64,000 nucleotides of DNA. It comes from Octopus vulgaris (Eukaryota). Shown here one piece after another: positions 6,120 to 52,068 of this stretch (positions are counted from its first letter, which is position 1; the number at the start of each line of letters is the position of its first letter). The notes under the pieces are model-generated. The model made no database searches. It was given only the letters and a program-made list of their open reading frames with translations, and was not told where the DNA came from. The stretch is from assembly GCA_951406725.2 (NCBI GenBank), contig OX597841.1, forward strand, positions 558,001 to 622,000, read 5' to 3'. Made by a program: the position numbers and the translations under genes.

Positions 6120-6168
<49 letters not shown>

Positions 6169-6476
6169 AAAATAGTAAAGTGTGAAAAAACGACAGAAGG
6201 CTTAAATGTTAAAAAATATATATATTTGTGTCAAAATGTCTGGAGAATATTGGAAAAATTTTTTTCCTTTCCTTAAAATGACATAATTTTAAAATTTTTA
6301 AAGAAATTACCGGTTTCGCGTGTAGCTTTTCAAATTTCTTGTGACGTTATGTTTATATTGCATGGAGTTATCGTTGTGTTTATTAACAGGAGATTTCTAA
6401 ATAAGGGGAGGTAGTGAGTGATTTCTTCCGGTGTAAGGGAGACAATCGCTTAAAATTTTTTTTTCCCTTTTCCTTG

Positions 6477-8256
6477 TTAATTTCTCTGTGTCAGTATGTT
6501 CGGATGGTTGAGTCTGGGTTTGTACTTTTCAATGAAGAATGTTTCCTTGTTCAGTCTCATTTGTGTTGATGATCCGAAAGCACATTGGTAAAATGGGAAG
6601 ATTAAAAATTGTGGCAGTATTTGCTTTGCGCATTTCTCAATGTGCTCACTAAAAGGTATCATTCTATATTCTGGGAATGCAATCTGTTGTCGATGCAGTG
6701 TGCATCTACGCCTGAGTGATAGTCCCGTTGAACCCACGTAGTCTTGGTGGCAGCCCGAGCATTTAATAACATAAATTATGTTTTCAGAGGCACAAGTAAA
6801 GTTAGATTTGATCTTGAATTTCTGTCCCTCTTTAAAGAAGAATTCTGATCCTTCCAATAGGTTAGGACATGTTGCACAGTTCGATCTACCACATTTTTTT
6901 ACTTTTGCATCCGTAATTTTAGAGGACAATTTTGCCTTTGTGAGAATCTTTTTAAGTGATTTAGGCTGTTTGTAGCTTTTAATGATTTGGTGTATGTTTA
7001 GAATTTCCTTTAATTTTGGGTTTTTATGAAGTATTGGTAAATTCTGGGTGATGATGGTGAAGGCTTCTTTGTTTCTGGGGTTGTATGTAGTTATATGTAA
7101 GGTAGTATTTTCGGGGAAGGTGTGTTGTTGTGTTGGACTTTTCTTAAAGTTTCTATGTTGATTTCTGTTGCACGTCTGATCCCATCCTCTATGAGTTGAG
7201 CTGGGTAATGTCTATCAATTAGGGTGTTTTTGAGTTCTTGCAGTCTAAAGTTCCTGGTATTTTGTTCTGACACTATTGTGCATATCCTTCTTGCAAGGTT
7301 GAAGGGGATGTTTGTTTTAGTGTGTCTTGGGTGGCATGAATTAAAAAGAAGGTATTGTTTGGCGTCTGTGGCTTTGTAAAAAATGTCTGTTTCTATTTTA
7401 AGGTTAATTTTTTAATTAGTATATCCAAGAACGGGAGCTCCTTTTGGTTGTATTCCATTGTGAACTGTATATTTGGGTTTATGCTGTTCAATAGGTTTTT
7501 AAATTTTAGGAGTTTACCTATGTTTTCATTCCAGAGAATGAAACAATCGTCTAGGAATCGTTTCCAATTCTCTTTTATGTATTGAGAGAGGGAGTTTCCA
7601 AAGATTGATAGAGATTCCTGGTAAATGATTATTTCCATGTATCCCATTGTTAAGTTCGCAATGACTGGTGCTGCCCTTGTACCCATAGCAATTCCGGATT
7701 TTTTACGGTAAAATGTATTGTCAAACATGAAGTGGTTATTGTGTAGGATGAATTCAATTGATTTAGTAATGAATTCCTTACTGATCCTTTTTGGTATTTC
7801 TTCCGGAAATTGGTCTAACCAGAACTGTATTGCCTCCAGTCCATAATTATGAGGTATACTGGTATACAAGTTGACTACATCAAATGAAACCAGGATTGTT
7901 TCTTCCTTGGTTTTTTTTGGAAGGTGGTTTAACATATCTAAGTCATCTCTGATATGGCTATCGATATGTTTAAGGAAGGGTTTCAGGAGGATATCCATAA
8001 GTAGACTTAGTCTGTGTGTTTCACAGGTTGGGCCAGCTACAATGGGTCGTAGTTTTAGGTCCCCCGGATTAGGTGTGTGTATGTATGTCTTTGGTGATTT
8101 TTTAATGGTTTCATTTATAATTTGACTTTTATGAATTTTTGGCAGACCATAGAAAAGGCTAGGTTTGCATTTAAAGTTTGTTAGGAAATCAATCTCTTTG
8201 GTTGTCAGTTCCTTTTCATGGGTTTTAATTAGTGAAGATAGAGTTTTTCACCAAAG
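6477..8256 (-). pseudogene. PLE RT + GIY-YIG ORF, 5'-truncated with two frameshifts
   Basis: ORFs 7393-7998, 7091-7273 and 6477-6929 join into one PLE polyprotein by frameshifting (KIETDIF..., ITTYNP...). Confidence 0.9.
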
Positions 8257-8717
8257 ACATACTTGTGCCTCTGAAAACATAATTTATGTTATTAAATGCT
8301 CGGGCTGCCACCAAGACTACGTGGGTTCAACGGGACTATCACTCAGGCGTAGATGCACACTGCATCGACAACAGATTGCATTCCCAGAATATAGAATGAT
8401 ATCTTTTAGTGAGCACATTGAGAAATGCGCAAAGCAAATACTGCCACAATTTTTAATCTTCCCATTTTACCAATGTGCTTTCGGATCATCAACACAAATG
8501 AGACTGAACAAGGAAACATTCTTCATTGAAAAGTACAAACCCAGACTCAACCATCCGAACATACTGACACAGAGAAATTAACAAGGAAAAGGGAAAAAAA
8601 AATTTTAAGCGATTGTCTCCCTTACACCGGAAGAAATCACTCACTACCTCCCCTTATTTAGAAATCTCCTGTTAATAAACACAACGATAACTCCATGCAA
8701 TATAAACATAACGTCAC

Positions 8718-8757
8718 AAGAAATTTGAAAAGCTACACGCGAAACCGGTAATTTCTT
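8718..8757 (+). ncRNA. Minimal type I hammerhead, U3:A8 core variant, in the PLE terminal repeat (mirror copy 6301-6340, minus strand)
   Basis: AAGAAAT-TTGAAAA-GC tacac GC-GAAA-CCGG-TA-ATTTCTT. Perfect 7-bp stem I and palindromic stem III; C3:G8 is replaced by U3:A8. Confidence 0.7.
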
Positions 8758-8931
8758 TAAAAATTTTAAAATTATGTCATTTTAAGGAAAGGAAAAACAT
8801 TTTTCCAATATTCTCCAGACATTTTGACACAAATATATATATTTTTTAACATTTAAGCCTTCTGTCGTTTTTTCACACTTTACTATTTTCTTATATATTC
8901 ACCCACGTGCTTTACCAAACAAACTTTCTTA

Positions 8932-11592: not shown

Positions 11593-12284
11593 GTTGTTGC
11601 CCATGTAGTGTGTCCCTCATCTCAATCTCATTAACAGGTCTAAAAGAAGGAAAGGAACCTTACAATTTGTTAACAGCATCGACACAGGATTTGCAGGGGT
11701 GAAGTTGAAGACAGCATCGAACTGCCCCTTTGTCTCTGATTCTCAATTTTACCCCAGTATTTTCACCCGAACACTTTCCCATGATTGAATATTGTTGCAA
11801 GTTATCGGGGGTTTGGAATCAGCGTTTTCCATCTTCTAGAAGGGTTGTCTCACTACCACCTGGATGATGAGCTCCATGCGATCGAAGGAATTACTAATTA
11901 ATCCATAATTAGAACCTTGACGACCACTACTACTCCGGGTCAGACTAGATCTTGGGACAGCGGTGGCTAAGAGCTGGTTCAAAAACTCGTCAAAACACTA
12001 GAAATCCCCAACCAGGGATTACTGCTGGATGCAGTTTAAAATCATACCCAGGACCTATGCCTTTAGGAATCACCTTAAATTATTTTATTTTTTCTCTTCT
12101 AAATTGTAATTTATTCATTTAGCGTTTTCTTTTACAAACATTCTTCCTCTTACATGCAAACATTTTCCATCTTCTCAAATTATCTTCGTCTTCTCTTTCA
12201 GGATTACTCCGCCTTACTCTTAAACATTTCCCATTGATGTTAGGGCCAAGAATGTCCCAGTTCCCTTTTACTTGTCCAGCTGCA

Positions 12285-12582
12285 ATGGCAGTGCAGCTGT
12301 TAACATTTACAATAATTCTGGCGGTTGCCTTTGCTCAGGAATTTCATGATGCTTACTACGAACGTTTGCCTCCTGGTTACCCTTATGGATACCTTCAGAC
12401 GAATCCATCGGAAAAATTCTATAAGAGAGAAAGTCTACTGGAATGTACTGGCATCGCTCTACAGAGCCAATCAGAATTCTTTACTTACAACGATGTCAGC
12501 CGTGTTTGTAAGAATTACTCACCGAAAGATATAATGACAGTCGTCAGCACGAGTGACAGCAACGAGATTGCCTTCTATAGAT
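12285..12582 (+). CDS. Paralogue A coding exon 1: signal peptide + degenerate PAN/Apple-like module
   Basis: MAVQLLTFTIILAVAFA|QEF...ECTGIALQSQSEFFTYNDVSRVCK...EIAFYR. Upstream acceptor CTTGTCCAG at 12279; phase-1 donor T|GTAAGT. Homologous to 44725-45025. Confidence 0.85.
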
Positions 12583-15284: not shown

Positions 15285-16430
15285 ATTATTATTATTATTA
15301 TTACTATTGAGTGAGAGAGCAGTGCATGCCATCAAAGTGACACTTGGGTACAAATATACGAAGTTCAGTATACCCATCATGACTAACCGTCTGATGAGGG
15401 TACACTAGGCATATGCATCACAACCAATTGTTCGCAACATGGGAATCTCATATCAAGATAAACAGTGCATGACCTTGCAAGAGGGGCCCAGTTAGAATTT
15501 TCTTCTGGTTGGGTAACCCATCCCACTCAAAAGGTCCCTGATTAAGGGTTGTTTAAGGATGTTGAATGAAACAGAGGTGAATTGTTCAAACCCCAAAGAC
15601 CCTCTCAACACATGGCTATGATGCTCCCCCACTACTTCTACTCGTGATCAGAGATGCACATATCGTCAGCCACTACGGGACATGCTCAACTGGTTACGGT
15701 CAAACAACTGACAAGCAAATCTGTAAGTAATAATAGTAAAAGCAGTAATAATAATAATTATCATAGACAAAAGACTCCCCTTTAGGGGAGTGGTCAGTAA
15801 ATGGGAAACAAAATCGATGAAATCAACTTACGATACATGACTGGTCAAAGTTTTATTGAACCCAGCATAAAGTAAAGCTGGGGGACCTGGGTGGGACTTG
15901 ATCTCAAATTTGAATAATCTTGTCGTTCTTCTCGTGAGGTGGCAAAATTGAGTAACAAACAAAATCTTGTGGGAACATGTGAGCCAGTAACCTACGGGAT
16001 CTCAGATCAGGAGCAAGGAATGAGGTTAGCTAGGACACATCGAGCGGAAACCTCTTTCTGATTTTACAAGGCAAGCCATCCGATGAATATCGCAAGGAAG
16101 GCAGAAGCGTGACAGATAAAAAAAAAACATGGAAAAGCTCAACAGAAACTGAAGAAATGGTTGATGGTTAGACCTGGGGATAACTGCAATTCATTGCCAA
16201 ATTTACCAGCCTATAGCGATCTGTTACTGGTGTCCTGTACTCTACATGGAGTTAAGGAAATGAAGAAGACATATCGTGTTTTTCTCTTATATATCTGCCA
16301 ACTAAACTTAACGTTTCAATATTTTCTCTCATGGATAGATGGCTACACATTTTGGTGGGTAGAAGCATTAGTTTTCATTAATTCTATTAACTCTATTTAG
16401 CAGACAATGATTGATCTAGCAGCCATTGAT

Positions 16431-16800: not shown

Positions 16801-17826
16801 TTGTGTGTCTATGTTTGTCCCCCTAGCATTGCTTGACAACCGATGCTGGTGTGTTTATGTCCCCGTCACTTTAGCGGTTTTACGTGTCTACATGTTCATT
16901 TCTTTTGCAGGTGAAACTAGTGATTAGCAAAAACTAACACTCTTGTATATATTCTATCAATTTCTTTGGACGAACCGCTATGTTACGGGGGACATCAACA
17001 CAAGGAAACCATTTGTCAAGTGCTAGGAGTGAAATACACACACACATACACAGACGCAAAAACACATACAATGTGCGTGTAATGGGGCTAAAAACGCATG
17101 GATTATTTGTGTATTACGAGGTGTGTTTTAGTAGCAGAATTTTGTTATTGTTACCACATTGCGTCATGCAGCTTGGAATGGAACACTATGAGATCCTGTG
17201 TTTTCATAACATTACCAAAGGAAATTTCCAAGCGAAGGGTAATTAAATATATATTATTTGATACATTTATGGATGGTAAGATACCTATTAGGCGAGTGAC
17301 AAATAAAAATCGTTAATTTCGCGGGTTATACAGATTCAATGGTCTCAAAGGAAGGATGTAATAAAAATGAGTGGAAATTAGACTAACAACTAAAGAAATA
17401 TATTTTAAAGTATCTCGATCACTTTAACTTGATCCAATTATTTTTCATTATGCGAGTGCTAACGTGTGGCGCAGGAGGCTGTGTGGTAAGTAGCTTGCTT
17501 ACCAGCCACATGGTTCCGGGTTCAGTCCCACTGCGTGGCATCTTGGGCAAGTGTCTTCTGCTATAGCCCCGGGCCGACCAATGTCTTATGAGTGGATTTG
17601 GTAGACGGAAACTGAAAGAAGCCTGTCGTATATATGTATATATATATATATGTGTGTGTGTGTTTGTGTGTCTGTGTTTGTCCCCCTAGCATTGCTGGTG
17701 TGTTCGGCAAATGAGACCGATAGAATAAGTACTGGGCTTACAAAGAAATTAGTCCCGGGTCGAGTTGCTCGACTAAAGGCGGTGCTCCAGCATGGCCGCA
17801 GTCTACTGACTGAAACAAGTAAAAGA

Positions 17827-17923: not shown

Positions 17924-18087
17924 GTGAAACTAGTGATTAGCAAAAACCAAACCGATGTGGTAACTATGATATTTAATGGACGAAATACAACCATTGAAAG
18001 CTGGTTCTCTCGGAAAAACTTGAAAAGTTCACCATGGAACGACCTGGCTTCAGCCACCGGACTTGAATTCTCAATTAAGGGATTCGG
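17924..18087 (+). CDS. Paralogue A exon 3
   Basis: TTGCAG|VKLVISKNQTDVVTMIFNGRNTTIESWFSRKNLKSSPWNDLASATGLEFSIKGF|GTATGT. 164 nt, same length and phases as exon 3 of B and D. Confidence 0.9.
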
Positions 18088-20180: not shown

Positions 20181-20341
20181 TCTTACACGTCGCTTCTATA
20201 TAACAATACCTGGTAATTGTAACGGGGACAGTGGCTGGTTGGCCATCATTGAGGCGACAGGTGGCTGTCAGTGGGAAAAGTCAGATCACTACCCTTTAAT
20301 TCGTTATTCTGATACAAAATCGAAAGTCATATGGAACAACA
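20181..20341 (+). CDS. Paralogue A exon 4
   Basis: CCGTAG|LTRRFYITIPGNCNGDSGWLAIIEATGGCQWEKSDHYPLIRYSDTKSKVIWNN|GTAAGT. 161 nt, phase 2 to phase 1. Confidence 0.9.
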
Positions 20342-20607: not shown

Positions 20608-20663
20608 GTTATGGATTAGCAGACTCCACGGCCATATTCATCCGCCTGAGGCAGCAGAACTAA
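20608..20663 (+). CDS. Paralogue A exon 5 (terminal)
   Basis: TTGCAG|(S)YGLADSTAIFIRLRQQN*; AATAAA at 20763. Confidence 0.85.
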
Positions 20664-22153: not shown

Positions 22154-23965
22154 TATGATATCATATTTTCTCTCACAATTCCTACGACCATTAATAGAGC
22201 TATCTGCGGATGTATGTGACAGTACTGAGGACCTCCTTAGCAGGATCCGCGAATGCAACAACACGTGTGACCTCAAGAACCACATCGTGGGTAGCATGGA
22301 TGTGGTATCACTATACCCCTCCATCGATGTAGACTTTGCTGTCGATAAATGTATAGAAATAGTTAGTGAGAGTGGTATGATATTTAAGAATGTGGATGTA
22401 TATGAACTACGGCTCTTCCTGGCCCTGACGTGTACCAATGAATACCTGTCGCGCAATAACCTTCTATATGTTTGTCCCACCCGTAACAAACGCGGTAGAC
22501 CACCTACCATTACCTCAGCATACAGGTAGACTCACTGTGAGCGCTGGCAGGGATGGACAAAGCCGGACTACCCACCTTTAAGTGCACACGACATTAGAAC
22601 CACCATCGCACATGCTATCGGTGTCAGCCTGAGAATTACGCTAAAAACACATATTTTTAAGTTTGACAACAAACTGTATAGGCAGACGAAAGGTGGTGCT
22701 ATTGGAGTGGGGATCGCCGGTGACGTTGCAAACCTCTTCATGGTATGGTGGGGCAAACATTTTAAACAGTGCCTAGCAAACCACTTGGCTATGTACTCTC
22801 GTTACGTCGACGACATTAACCTTGTTGTGAAATATAATACAGACACAGTTATGGGCCCTCTACCAAGTGAAGAACAGGTGATGACATCTATACAACACAT
22901 AGCTGACTCTATCCACAGCAGTATAAAATTTACCATAGACTACCCCTCTAAACACCCCAGTAAACGATTACCCGTCCTAGATACTGAGCTATGGATGGAA
23001 GATGCTATGGTTAATGGAACCATTAAACCCTGTATACTCCACTCACACTATCAGAAACCGATGGCTAATCCACTAGTAATCCGTAGTGACTCAGCTATGT
23101 CGGATACTGCCAAACTCAACATCCTAGTGGCAGACTTAATTAGAGTAATGAGGAATGTATCACCACTATGCCAACCACAAGAACGACAACAACACATCCA
23201 GCACTACATATTCCAAATGCAACGCTCCGGATACACACAAGACGATAGAGTCAGAGTGTACAAAAGAGCGAAAGCTAGATTCGAACGCATTCTAAGGAAC
23301 TACGAAGACGATATATGCCCCCTATACCGCAACAAGTTCTGGAATAGGTTAGAGAGGGACACCAACAAAAGGAGGAGAAACGTTACTTGGTACGATAACA
23401 GGAGATTTCACGGAGTAATGTTCGTTGACGCTACACCTAAGAACGAGCTAAGTAAGGCATTCAAGAAAATCCTGCGCACTACTGGCCTAAAAATTAAAGT
23501 TGTAGAAAAGACAGGTAGGACTATCAAATCGGCATTATGCAGATCATATCCATTTGATAGAATCACCTGTCAAAGTAATTGTGCAGTATGTTCGACAAAT
23601 CCACATGTAAACTGCAAAAACAAAGGGCACTGTATACCAGATTAAGTGCCAGGAGGGAGAGCTTGCGCGACTAACCCAGAGTCATACATAGGTGAGACTT
23701 CTAGAAGCATCAATGATAGGTTCAAAGAACACCTGGACAACTACATTGAAAGGAAGCCAAACTCCATCTTCTACCAACATGCTGTAGACTGCCACAAAGG
23801 ATCCTTAGGGAAACTTAAGTTGAACATCCTATCAACACATCCCACCGATGCAATGTTGAGACAGGTCACAGAAGCTGTTTGTATACAAGAATACAAACCT
23901 ACTCTCAACCGAAAATCCGAATGGAGTAACATCTAGATCCCATTCAGAAGGACTATTCTATAACC

Positions 23966-23967
<2 letters not shown>
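22154..23967 (+). mobile_element. Penelope-like retroelement (RT + GIY-YIG), 5'-truncated and degenerate
   Basis: GSMDVVSLYPSID, QTKGGAIG, YSRYVDD, CxxxCxxC, YQIKC...YIGETSRS...LNRKSEW. Stop at 22527 and a frameshift near 23625. Ends at (CT)n. Confidence 0.92.
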
Positions 23968-24027
<60 letters not shown>

Positions 24028-35120: not shown

Positions 35121-36378
35121 TGGGAGGGAGAAAACATTGCAAACAATGAACGAAATAAACATGAAATGAAGAAATCGTATAAATAAAAGGGCGCTACTAT
35201 ACATTTATACGCTCCCGACTTTGTAGCCTCATGACATGCAGAACAATGGATACTTTTTAACAAAAGTATCTATAAATACACCAAAGATGTTGTGAATTCA
35301 GAGTATATAGGGATTTAATGGAGAATTTGTTCCGATGGGATGGAGAGAGGAGCTTTGGAAAATTCACACGATCTTGACATTTTTCCCTCAAAGAGGTCCC
35401 GATGTATCTACGTTACGAAATGAAGGGGTGGGTGTTAGGGTTCGTTTTTAGGGTTAATGTTAGCGCCAGTTTTTGGGGTTAGTTAGAGTTAGACAGTCAT
35501 TACCCGTCCACACAGCGCACATTTAAAATGTTTTGTACGTAACACCTGTATTTAAGTAGTACCTATTTCTTTACTACCCACAAAGGGCTAAACATAGAGG
35601 GGACAAAAAAGGACAGACAAACGGTTTAAGTCGATTATATCGACCCAGTGCGTAACTGGTACTTATTTAATCGACCCCGAAAGGATGAAAGGATAAGTCG
35701 ACCTCGGCGGAATTTGAACTCAGCACGTAACGACAGACGAGTATTTAAGTTGTACCGTTAAGGGGCCTCTCTATTTAAGAAGTAGCAGTTTCACTTCAAC
35801 ATTGAAATTTCATTTGTGTCGATGCAGCACGAAGTCTTGTCAGTTAACAGCACACATACACACATACACACACACATATATATTCATTGCCTTTCAATTG
35901 TGTGTATGTGTATCTATGTGTGCGCGCGAAGGTGTCACTGTTGAAGTCGCTCGTGCAACTTGTGTAAATATTTGTTTCTTTACTACCCACAAGGGGCTAA
36001 ACACAGAGGGGACAAACAAGGACAGACAAACGGATTAAGTCGATTACATCGATCCCAGTGCGTAACTGGTACTTATTTAATCGACCCCGAAGGGATGAAA
36101 GGCAAGGTAAACCTCGGCGGAATTTGAACTCAGAACGTAGCGGCAGACGAAATACCCTATTTCTTTAATACCCACAAGGGCTAAACGCAAAGAGGACAAA
36201 CAAGGACAGACAAATTGACTGAGTCCATTATATCGACCCCAGTGCGTAACTGGTACTTATTTAATCCACCCCGAAAGGATAAAATAAGTACAAAACAATA
36301 AGTACAAAATTAACTTTTAGTACTACTACTCACAGTAAGACAAACGCACACACACACAGAAGATACAATATCACTTAC

Positions 36379-36539
36379 CGTTGTTCCATATGACTTTCGA
36401 TTTTGTATCAGAATAACGAATTGAAGGGTAGTGATCTGAGTTTTCCCACTGACAGCTACCTGGCGCCTCAATGATGGCCAACCAGCCTCTGGCCCCTTCA
36501 CAAAAAATATTTATTGTTATATAGAAGCGACGTGTAAGA
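36379..36539 (-). pseudogene. Paralogue C: isolated exon 4 within the inverted duplication
   Basis: CCGTAG|LTRRFYITINIFCEGARGWLAIIEAPGSCQWENSDHYPSIRYSDTKSKVIWNN|GTAAGT, 161 nt, open frame. Exon 3 is replaced by SINE DNA exactly after its acceptor (~37438) and exon 5 is absent. Confidence 0.85.
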
Positions 36540-38463
36540 CTACGGAGATAGAAAAAGAAAAAAACTTGTTTGGGTTTCAGAATATGAAAATCTAAACTTC
36601 TAGAAAACATACCATTATATCTGCTATATGCAGTTAGATCAATCAGAATTTAATTAGAATAGCCATCTGGGTATCATACTTAATGTGTATATACACACTC
36701 GCGATAGACTATTTACTGAAGTATTTTTCCTGAAATAGCATGTATTATGGATTTGCTGTCTATCGGATAGACACCGAAATTCGTCCCAGCAGCGGCCAGT
36801 GAGAGCAAAAGATGTTATTTCAGGACACAAATATTGCAGTAACTGGCCTGTCGAGAGTGTACATACGTTATGTATGCTACATAGATGTTAGAATGTGCAG
36901 TGGCAGCCCACAGACCCGTCTATAGATTCCATTTCAAATGAGATCTATCTTACACCAAAGATGCGTTCGTAAGCACTCACATACATATAAACGACATATA
37001 TACAGAAATACAGACATACGCAAACGCACACCCACAGGCAGATACATATGCACACACATACATACACACACACGCGCGCGCAGATTTGTGCAAATGTGAA
37101 AATATAAGGAAAGGCAAAAGTACACACGAGGCATACAATTTAGCAAAAAATCTACAAAACGATATATAAACGATAATATTTTCCCGTGTTGAACATCTTA
37201 GCAAAGCGCCAAGAGACGCAGGAGTGATTGTGTGGTAAGTAGCTTGTTTACCAGCCACATGGTTCCAGTTTCAGTCCCACTGTGTGGTTCCTCTGGCAAG
37301 TGTCTTCTACTATAGTCTCGGGCCGACCAAAGCCTTGTGGGTGGATTTGGTAGACGGAAACTTGCCCATGATGCCACGCAGTGGGACTGAACCCGGAACC
37401 ATGTGGTTGGTAAGCAAGCTACTTACCACACAGCCCCCTGCAATAGAAATGAACATGTAGACACGTACACACATGCACATGCATACATATACTCACACAC
37501 TCTCTCTCTCTCTCTCTTTTTACTCTTTTACTTGTTTCAGTCAGTAGACTGCGGCCATGCTGGAGCACCGCCTTTAGTCGAGCAACTCGACCCGGGACTA
37601 ATTTCTTTGTAAGCCCAGTACTTATTCTATCGGTCTCATTTGTCGAACACACCAGCAATGCTAGGGGGACAAACACAGACACACAAACACACACCAACAT
37701 ATATATATATATATATATATACATATATACGACCGGCTTCTTTCAGTTTCCGTCTACCAAATCCACTCACAAGACATTGGTCGGCCCGGGGCTATAGCAG
37801 AAGACACTTGTCCAAGATGCCACGCAGTGGGACTGAACCCGGAACCATGTGGTTGGTAAGCAAGCTACTTACCACACAGCCCCCTGCGCCACACGTTCGC
37901 ACTCGCATAATGAAAAATAATTGGATCAAGTTAAAGTGATCGAGATACTTTAAAATATATTTCATTAGTTGTTAGTCTAATTTCCACTCATTTTTGTTAC
38001 ATCCTTCCTTTGAGAAAATCGAATCTGTATAACCCGCGAAATTAACGATTTTTATTTGTCACTCACCTAATAAGTATCTTACCATCCATAAATGTATCAA
38101 ATAATATATATTTAATTACCCTTCGCTTGGAAATTTCCTTTGGTAATGTTATGAAAACATAGGATCTCATAGTGTTCCATTCCAAGCTGCATGACGCAAT
38201 GTGGTAACAATAACAAACTTCTGCTACTAAAACACACCTCGTAATACACAAATAATCCATGCGTTTTTAGCCCCATTACACGCACATTGTATGTGTTTTT
38301 GCCTCTGTGTATGTGTGTGTGTATTTCACTCCTACCACTTGACAAATGGTTTCCTTGTGTTGATGTCCCCCGTAACATAGCGGTTCGTCCAAAGAAATTG
38401 ATAGAATATATACAAGAGTATTAGTTCTACTAAACCCATGGCCGTAGTTCAATGACAGATATC

Positions 38464-44724: not shown

Positions 44725-52068
<7,344 letters not shown>

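Follow-up and report, generated by a model that had tools for sequence, protein, structure and literature searches.

Gene copies at the locus

The window analysed here is a 64,000-nucleotide stretch of Octopus vulgaris DNA (C28:558001-622000, C28 being the contig), which holds members of an array of ~60 gene copies at the end of that contig; exon 4 is the fastest-diversifying exon of these genes and is the subject of this work. Searches of the genome with the individual exons gave 60 matches among 71 candidates for exon 4, 70 among 86 for exon 3, 65 among 70 for exon 2 and 66 among 72 for exon 1, nearly all of them on C28 (58 of the exon-4 and 64 of the exon-2 matches). The first 1 Mb of C28 contains 45 exon-2 copies, the first at base 410, and the array is therefore at the contig end. 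Stops, deletions and orphan exons are frequent across its copies.

Four copies, A to D, concern us in the window. Copy A is one half of a tandem duplication of ~35-39 kb, the sister of which, A0 (C28:531526-544022), looks intact; the flanks of the duplication are 99.3-99.5% identical in places. The features are listed by position in the window.

12252..12582, forward strand: copy A exon 1, coding part; predicted signal peptide and PAN/apple domain; phase-1 donor
15724..15742, forward strand: breakpoint of the exon-2 deletion in copy A; ~1.1-1.2 kb gone; A0 counterpart at C28:538033/539216
16881..16937, forward strand: copy of the exon-3 acceptor and the first ~23 nt of exon 3
17924..18087, forward strand: copy A exon 3; starts in phase 0; no differences from A0 in 54 full codons
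20181..20341, forward strand: copy A exon 4; predicted fibrinogen-related domain, hypervariable hairpin region with two Cys
20608..20663, forward strand: copy A exon 5, coding part and stop; GT..AG exon 4-exon 5 joint seen in paralogue contigs
36379..36539, reverse strand: copy C, an orphan exon 4; open frame, splice sites intact; breakpoint between 36534 and 36511
36293..38459, reverse strand: inverted fragment holding C; pieces of introns 2, 3 and 4; exon 3 deleted; no exon 5
44725..52068, forward strand: copy B, intact-looking, five exons (44725-45025, 46792-46970, 48095-48258, 50372-50532, 52019-52068)
61219..62437, reverse strand: copy D exons 3-5; exon 5 limits approximate; exons 1-2 outside the window

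Copy A keeps exons 1, 3, 4 and 5 and has lost exon 2, for which there is no match at its place among the 65 genome exon-2 matches. In A, the phase-1 end of exon 1 is now followed by the phase-0 start of exon 3, so that a frameshift is predicted, with a stop within five codons. The duplicated exon-3 start at 16881..16937 is a scar of ectopic recombination. Exons 1, 2, 3 and 5 were sought near copy C and none was found, and copy D is broken by a 41-nt deletion in exon 4 and by TG instead of AG before exon 3.

The RefSeq models from O. sinensis and O. bimaculoides describe a protein of ~296 amino acids encoded by five exons, and copy A exon 3 matches a predicted O. vulgaris protein at 98%. Exon 4 is spliced to exon 5 at a GT..AG intron in three contigs from two sequencing runs of one study, runs that we presume to be RNA, and one 627-nt contig has exon 3 and exon 5 with no intron. 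The only fully covered exon 4 among the spliced contigs has 21 differences from A0, and thus these contigs are transcripts of paralogues, not of A. Exon 1 is present in 11 of the 24 sequencing runs listed; in the search of sequencing-run contigs, matches were swamped by short interspersed elements in intron 3.

The array genes are annotated merely as ‘uncharacterized’ or as chimeric gene models. We rejected the NCBI models P0001 and P0003 as a guide to gene structure, as they are chimeric predictions that skip or misread exons. The public O. vulgaris models P0001, P0003, P0033 and P0034 fuse adjacent copies, with exon 5 in the wrong frame; that the public models are chimeras is in part why the family went unnoticed. 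In O. sinensis P0035, a long Asn/Ser-rich tail replaces exons 4-5.

Divergence of exon 4 between copies A and C

A first-pass annotation had called exon 4 hypervariable from a comparison of A (20181-20341) with the reverse complement of 36379-36539 (copy C), reporting 15 differences in 161 nt, none of them synonymous. That count is exact: the 15 differences sit in 10 full codons (P>N, G>I, N>F, N>E, D>A, S>R, T>P, G>S, K>N and L>S) and in the split codon (A/G), and in the coding frame all are replacements. The 140 nt upstream do differ at only two positions (20063 and 20101), as had been said, and the whole alignable flanking intron differs at 16 of 763 nt, so that the comparison of exon 4 with intron stands at 9.3% versus 2.1% (Fisher p=5e-5). 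The motifs quoted for the Cys region of B (LHNDCGGDSGW) and D (NHGNCLTERGW) are likewise as given. The neutral probability that all 14 full-codon changes would be replacements is 0.029, for this pair alone.

The assumption that both copies read the split codon into the same exon 5 fails, because copy C has no exon 1, 2, 3 or 5 nearby. Moreover, C is a recombinant: at the 33 sites that separate A from A0, C agrees with A at 14 of the first 17 and with A0 at 15 of the last 16, the switch falling between 20186 and 20209 in A coordinates (permutation p=1e-4). The near-identical intron beside a divergent exon 4 is thus in part a recombination breakpoint, since C switches at the start of exon 4. As A and C are both broken, the pair is a poor test of selection.

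Replacement changes exceed the intron rate in young copies

The excess of exon-4 replacements over intron change is found in other comparisons. Between A and A0, exon 3 has no full-codon differences while exon 4 has 14 replacement and 0 silent changes, against 19 differences in 765 nt of flanking intron (p=2e-4). Among seven young copies, replacement changes affect 36 of 123 exon-4 sites (0.29), silent changes 3 of 36 (0.08) and intron changes 50 of 688 (0.07); the replacement rate differs from the intron rate (p=1e-10) and the silent rate does not (p=0.74). Thus, the silent rate tracks the intron and the replacement rate is ~4 times higher, which is not expected from donor tracts alone. Changes private to A are concentrated in exon 4 (5/161 versus 2/753 in intron, p=0.002), as are those private to A0/C (6/161 versus 0/753, p=3e-5).

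Codon site models, run with our own code, support a positively selected class. We extracted 34 exon-4 copies and removed D and one identical duplicate; the remaining 32 represent 32 of the 60 exon-4 matches and are biased toward the relatives of A. For these 32 copies, M2a exceeds M1a with a likelihood ratio statistic (2dL) of 70.7, and the class with the raised ratio of replacement to silent rates (omega) has omega2=3.55 at about a quarter of codons (p2=0.25); M8 versus M8a gives 55.7. When A, C, a near-duplicate and two further partial copies are removed, the 27 left (nine of them of unchecked intactness) give 54.6. The statistic is 23.4 for eight intact-looking young copies and 19.6 with multi-nucleotide jumps masked. 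In a matched set of 18 genes, exon 4 has a 2dL of 23.9, compared to a maximum of 9.4 in 38 runs of a recombination null, in which neutral data were simulated on four discordant trees for the same 18 genes. Selection falls on exon-4 codons 1-2 and 40, on two stretches that surround the first Cys (codons 12-18) and the second (codons 27-31), and on the end of exon 3. Among the codon states by which A and C differ, seven are absent from the 29 other paralogues sampled, a sample that covers about half of the family. In the matched set, the exon-4 tree is the longest, 6.6 versus 2.9-3.7 for the other exons.

Positive selection on the loops flanking the Cys, as proposed in the first-pass annotation, is thus supported at the family level, while the A/C evidence on which it was based is weak and the selection is not confined to exon 4.

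Recombination among copies

Each exon alignment rejects the trees of the other three exons (approximately unbiased test, p<0.001); as every exon has its own tree, exons have been shuffled among copies. For instance, g85, g244 and g305 have a common exon 1 type but are separated by exon 4. In O. sinensis P0007, exons 1-2 are of g25 type (96% and 100%) and exons 3-4 of g73/g688 type (96% and 91%), a combination that is possibly a gene-model chimera instead of a real shuffle. Gene conversion or recombination, which had been offered as the alternative to selection, is therefore seen directly, in the breakpoint of C and in the incongruence of the exon trees, and the array evolves by birth-and-death with ectopic recombination. 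A run test in the manner of GENECONV (uncorrected p<0.01 for 45 of 496 pairs) was rejected as evidence of conversion, because the conserved 3' third of exon 4 gives long identical runs anyway.

Predicted architecture of the encoded protein

The protein is predicted to consist of a signal peptide, a PAN/apple domain and a divergent fibrinogen-related domain (FReD). P0005, a close homologue, has one N-terminal hydrophobic stretch and none later; with this single stretch and no transmembrane segment, the protein is likely to be secreted. Its N-terminal domain superimposes on PAN/apple structures (Z 6.7, root-mean-square deviation (rmsd) 2.4, 57 residues aligned) from a model with a predicted local distance difference test score (pLDDT) of 64, and PAN/apple-bearing proteins take ranks 1-9 of 48,161 chains in a fold search whose query region has a pLDDT of ~55-60. 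In Pfam, PAN_3 matches P0011 at E 0.005, under the cut-off, and PAN_1 is above the cut-off in eight of 40 proteins scanned; the PAN domain of P0005 has only three Cys. Five single exons had no Pfam match.

The C-terminal domain was modelled from 106 sequences with a pLDDT of 88. All of the Foldseek matches listed, to rank 22, are members of the fibrinogen superfamily, and the top named hit in the ESM Atlas is ‘Fibrinogen C-terminal domain-containing’ (0.95, 187 of 256 features). Profile searches found no FReD chain in the PDB, and phmmer and profile searches of PDB sequences returned just a chance match at E 1.5 and a weak apple-domain match. The classical fibrinogen A-subdomain, ending CDM..GGGW, is absent from the octopus proteins, in which PAN precedes the first strand, but it lies directly upstream of the domain in nine of 244 domain hits, from five relatives. 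Homology to the FReD superfamily is likely, and these A-subdomain fusions are the best evidence for it. P0070, P0077, P0085 and P0087 are large proteins (887-2257 amino acids) with 2-3 domain copies, most of which follow a classical fibrinogen A-subdomain; two of the four carry TIG or FG-GAP repeats, and their origin may be non-animal.

In the domain model, exon 4 corresponds to two paired strands, with two near-invariant Cys (C145 and C161 of P0008) in their loops. A disulfide between them would draw the variable loops together, and on this model the loops may form a binding surface. The ligand pocket of ficolins and tachylectin 5A is next to a Cys in the C-terminal region (PMC7858579). At the sequence level, none of the 32 exon-4 copies has a His behind the second Cys, and no DxD is conserved ahead of the first. 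Because the residues of a ficolin-type pocket are not evident, we assign binding to the loops by inference only.

The domain itself is widespread, with 1064 representatives at E<=0.001 and a motif RF-I...C..D-GW...C.W...P..Y, and no Pfam model or solved structure was found for it. The PAN plus domain layout also occurs in relatives of ~300 amino acids; among the 40 proteins scanned, others join the domain to C-type lectin, F5/8, SUEL, WSC or TSP1 modules, and one relative, P0117, has VWD and ZP domains. The genome has 15 canonical Fibrinogen_C matches, none on C28.

Other features of the region

At C28:453000-517000 there are three near-identical tandem gene units of ~20.5 kb, with 0-1 differences in the 161 nt of exon 4; exon 1 of the middle unit contains a stop, and exon 5 stops two codons early in each of the three. 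They represent either very recent amplification or assembly redundancy. Gene B (44725-52068) has an inverted twin ~65 kb away (C28:666800-676100), with an identical exon-2 protein and a nearly identical exon 4; several exon-1 residues differ. Approximately nine tandem repeats of ~93 nt, derived from the exon-5 3' region, lie behind one paralogue at C28:720860-721880.

A 635-nt inverted repeat, with arms 99.7% identical (6164-6798 and 8260-8894), is also found in the A0 duplicate. Similar pairs are at 59373-60998 and 50761-51765, and all three are possibly non-autonomous DNA transposons. Just downstream of A, a reverse-transcriptase-like reading (~22180-23970), common to A0 at 99.3%, presumably resembles a long interspersed (LINE) or Penelope element.

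Discussion

Exon 4, we propose, is a fast-diversifying and reshuffled exon that encodes predicted fibrinogen-related loops recognising variable non-self surface ligands, and we give this reading a probability of roughly 0.6. Its parts differ in strength. The evolutionary part, that is, the array, the shuffling and the diversifying selection, is highly probable; a function in immune recognition falls slightly short of even odds. Tandem and inverted duplication with ectopic recombination would generate further copies and join the PAN part (exons 1-2) and the tip (exons 3-4) in new ways; selection would then fix replacements in the loops, and losing copies such as A, C and D would decay. Arrays under strong diversifying selection usually mark an arms race, and here an arms race with microbes or parasites may drive the loops of a secreted recognition protein, whose ligands would presumably be microbial or parasite glycans.

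Several observations weigh against this reading. Six of the 15 A/C differences fall in one 15-nt run in which A matches the g505 group, and these six may therefore be a single event, either a conversion tract or an ancestral state that was retained. In the matched 18 genes, exon-4 dS, the silent divergence, is doubled (2.64 versus 1.4-1.5 elsewhere), and thus part of the variability of exon 4 reflects a deeper genealogy; the M0 omega of the matched set is 0.78. Exon 1, which encodes PAN, has seven selected codons and a likelihood ratio equal to that of exon 4 in these 18 genes (2dL 25), and these sites suggest that the PAN exon is a second variable surface. Replacement and silent rates do not differ significantly in three smaller subsets (p=0.25-0.76), the silent rate is above the intron rate in a four-copy intact subset (p=0.049), and the intron exceeds the replacement rate in the g244/g276/g305 trio. 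Site posteriors are naive empirical Bayes values with fixed relative branch lengths, and the enrichment of selected sites in loops is not significant (8/11 versus 29/54 codons, p=0.19). With respect to the domain, PF00147 (Fibrinogen_C) has no match in P0001-P0004 (E<=1) or in P0005 and P0011 (E<=0.01). The Foldseek matches are weak, with a best E of 0.013, and VIA re-ranking places the best at Z 5.5 (rmsd 4.5, 145 aligned) with TLDc tied at 5.3. The Ca-loop Asp and the Cys-His/Tyr ligand residues described in PMC7858579 have no evident counterpart.

The same evolution could serve a reproductive product, with the loops acting in sperm-egg or mate recognition or in spermatophore or oviducal secretions. 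Abalone lysin, sea-star bindin and other proteins of gamete recognition evolve in this way, and P0117 combines VWD and ZP domains. The distribution of the family gives weak indications in the same direction: exon 1 is in fewer than half of the runs listed, and the family identifiers and peptides queried were not in the rows shown of proteome tables for salivary glands, skin mucus, ink and field samples (supplements of PMC7693380, PMC10138644, PMC10142993 and PMC10337964). Dozens of co-existing birth-and-death paralogues would nevertheless better suit a repertoire than a single compatibility locus, and we regard a reproductive role as unlikely.

A salivary or venom product, with loops that track prey targets, is a still less likely use of the same evolution. 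Divergence of exon over intron in a tandem array is a toxin pattern, and fibrinogen-domain proteins are known from some venoms. In conotoxins and snake three-finger toxins, the exon outpaces the introns and conserved Cys are flanked by variable loops, and octopus exon 4 is like them in both respects. Unlike them, the octopus protein is ~296 amino acids long with two domains, and there is neither a propeptide nor a small mature peptide; of the conotoxin-like analogy that was first drawn, only the divergence pattern stands, with the layout of signal, propeptide and small peptide absent. A few queries of the O. vulgaris posterior salivary gland supplement (PMC7693380) found no family identifier or peptide in the rows available, and the main text of two 2026 cephalopod venom preprints does not mention apple or fibrinogen domains.

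It is also improbable that there was no selection at all and that exon 4 reflects relaxed constraint in pseudogenes together with conversion tracts from distant paralogues. In its favour, three copies (A, C and D) are broken, recombination is proven for C, the exon trees are incongruent and exon-4 dS is doubled in the matched set; since 78% of sites are replacement sites, the all-replacement A/C pair has the neutral probability of 0.029 given above. Relaxation cannot, however, lift replacements over the intron rate, and donor tracts should also raise silent changes, which equal the intron in the seven-copy set. Furthermore, the likelihood ratio holds in intact-looking copies and exceeds the recombination null, and the seven A/C codon states found in none of the other paralogues sampled have no donor among them. 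This explanation is largely refuted.

That A and A0 are haplotypes assembled in tandem, or that the variants of A are assembly errors, is very improbable: the flanks are nearly identical in places, and every contig that covers 20221 in two other DNA-sized runs has G and not the base of A, a further point against our reading (contigs drop rare variants), but errors would neither preserve the reading frame nor prefer replacements nor gather near the Cys, A differs structurally from A0, the pattern recurs at loci that are clearly separate and in proteins of O. sinensis and O. bimaculoides, and if A and A0 were haplotypes exon 4 would be an allelic hypervariable site, with selection still implied.

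Returning to recognition of non-self ligands, the closest parallel is with the gastropod FREPs and VIgLs. In Biomphalaria glabrata these combine immunoglobulin superfamily (IgSF) domains with a C-terminal fibrinogen-related domain and are diversified by gene conversion and point mutation (PMC12074976). The octopus family is similarly multigene, predicted to be secreted and two-module with a C-terminal fibrinogen-related domain, and is diversified by conversion and point mutation, which we see at the germline level. In contrast to them, its N-terminal module is PAN/apple and not one or two IgSF domains, no coiled-coil linker is seen, and its domain lacks the A-subdomain and falls under Pfam detection. 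Most likely, the octopus protein would work like the snail FREPs without being one. Ficolins, tachylectin 5A, PmFREP and intelectins provide the top fold matches and the nearest named ESM clusters, and as in fibrinogen-related lectins the domain keeps a Cys pair in its C-terminal third. It differs from these lectins in that the template modelling score is at most 0.38, the Ca-binding and N-acetyl-binding residues of PMC7858579 are not evident, and there is no collagen stalk. The widespread extracellular domain is its actual family, and in the octopus lineage amplification has turned it into an array under positive selection.

No description of the array family was found in the literature searched, which covered few subscription journals, and six LOC identifiers returned 0 hits; nor is it described in the passages searched of PMC9068888, PMC7656900, PMC12607849 and two 2026 preprints. 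The diversification process is of a known kind, while the family, its architecture and its domain appear to be undescribed. The octopus has few canonical fibrinogen-domain genes (the 15 matches above) next to ~60 copies of a divergent relative.

Pseudogenes serve as conversion donors for chicken immunoglobulin and for the trypanosome variant surface glycoproteins. The array might by analogy be an unrecognised octopus recognition repertoire, combining PAN halves and tips with orphan exon-4 donors such as C, possibly somatically; this is an unlikely extension, which we rank between the reproductive and the salivary explanations. If it were true, such a donor-cassette repertoire would be the cephalopod counterpart of the snail FREPs, with a binding domain that derives from fibrinogen and is so far undescribed.

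The work defines a widespread extracellular domain (>1000 clusters) and indicates the residues most likely to set its specificity. If the function of the family is reproductive or salivary, the array would represent a new speciation or venom family; if it is immune, the array would be a concrete candidate for cephalopod recognition diversity.
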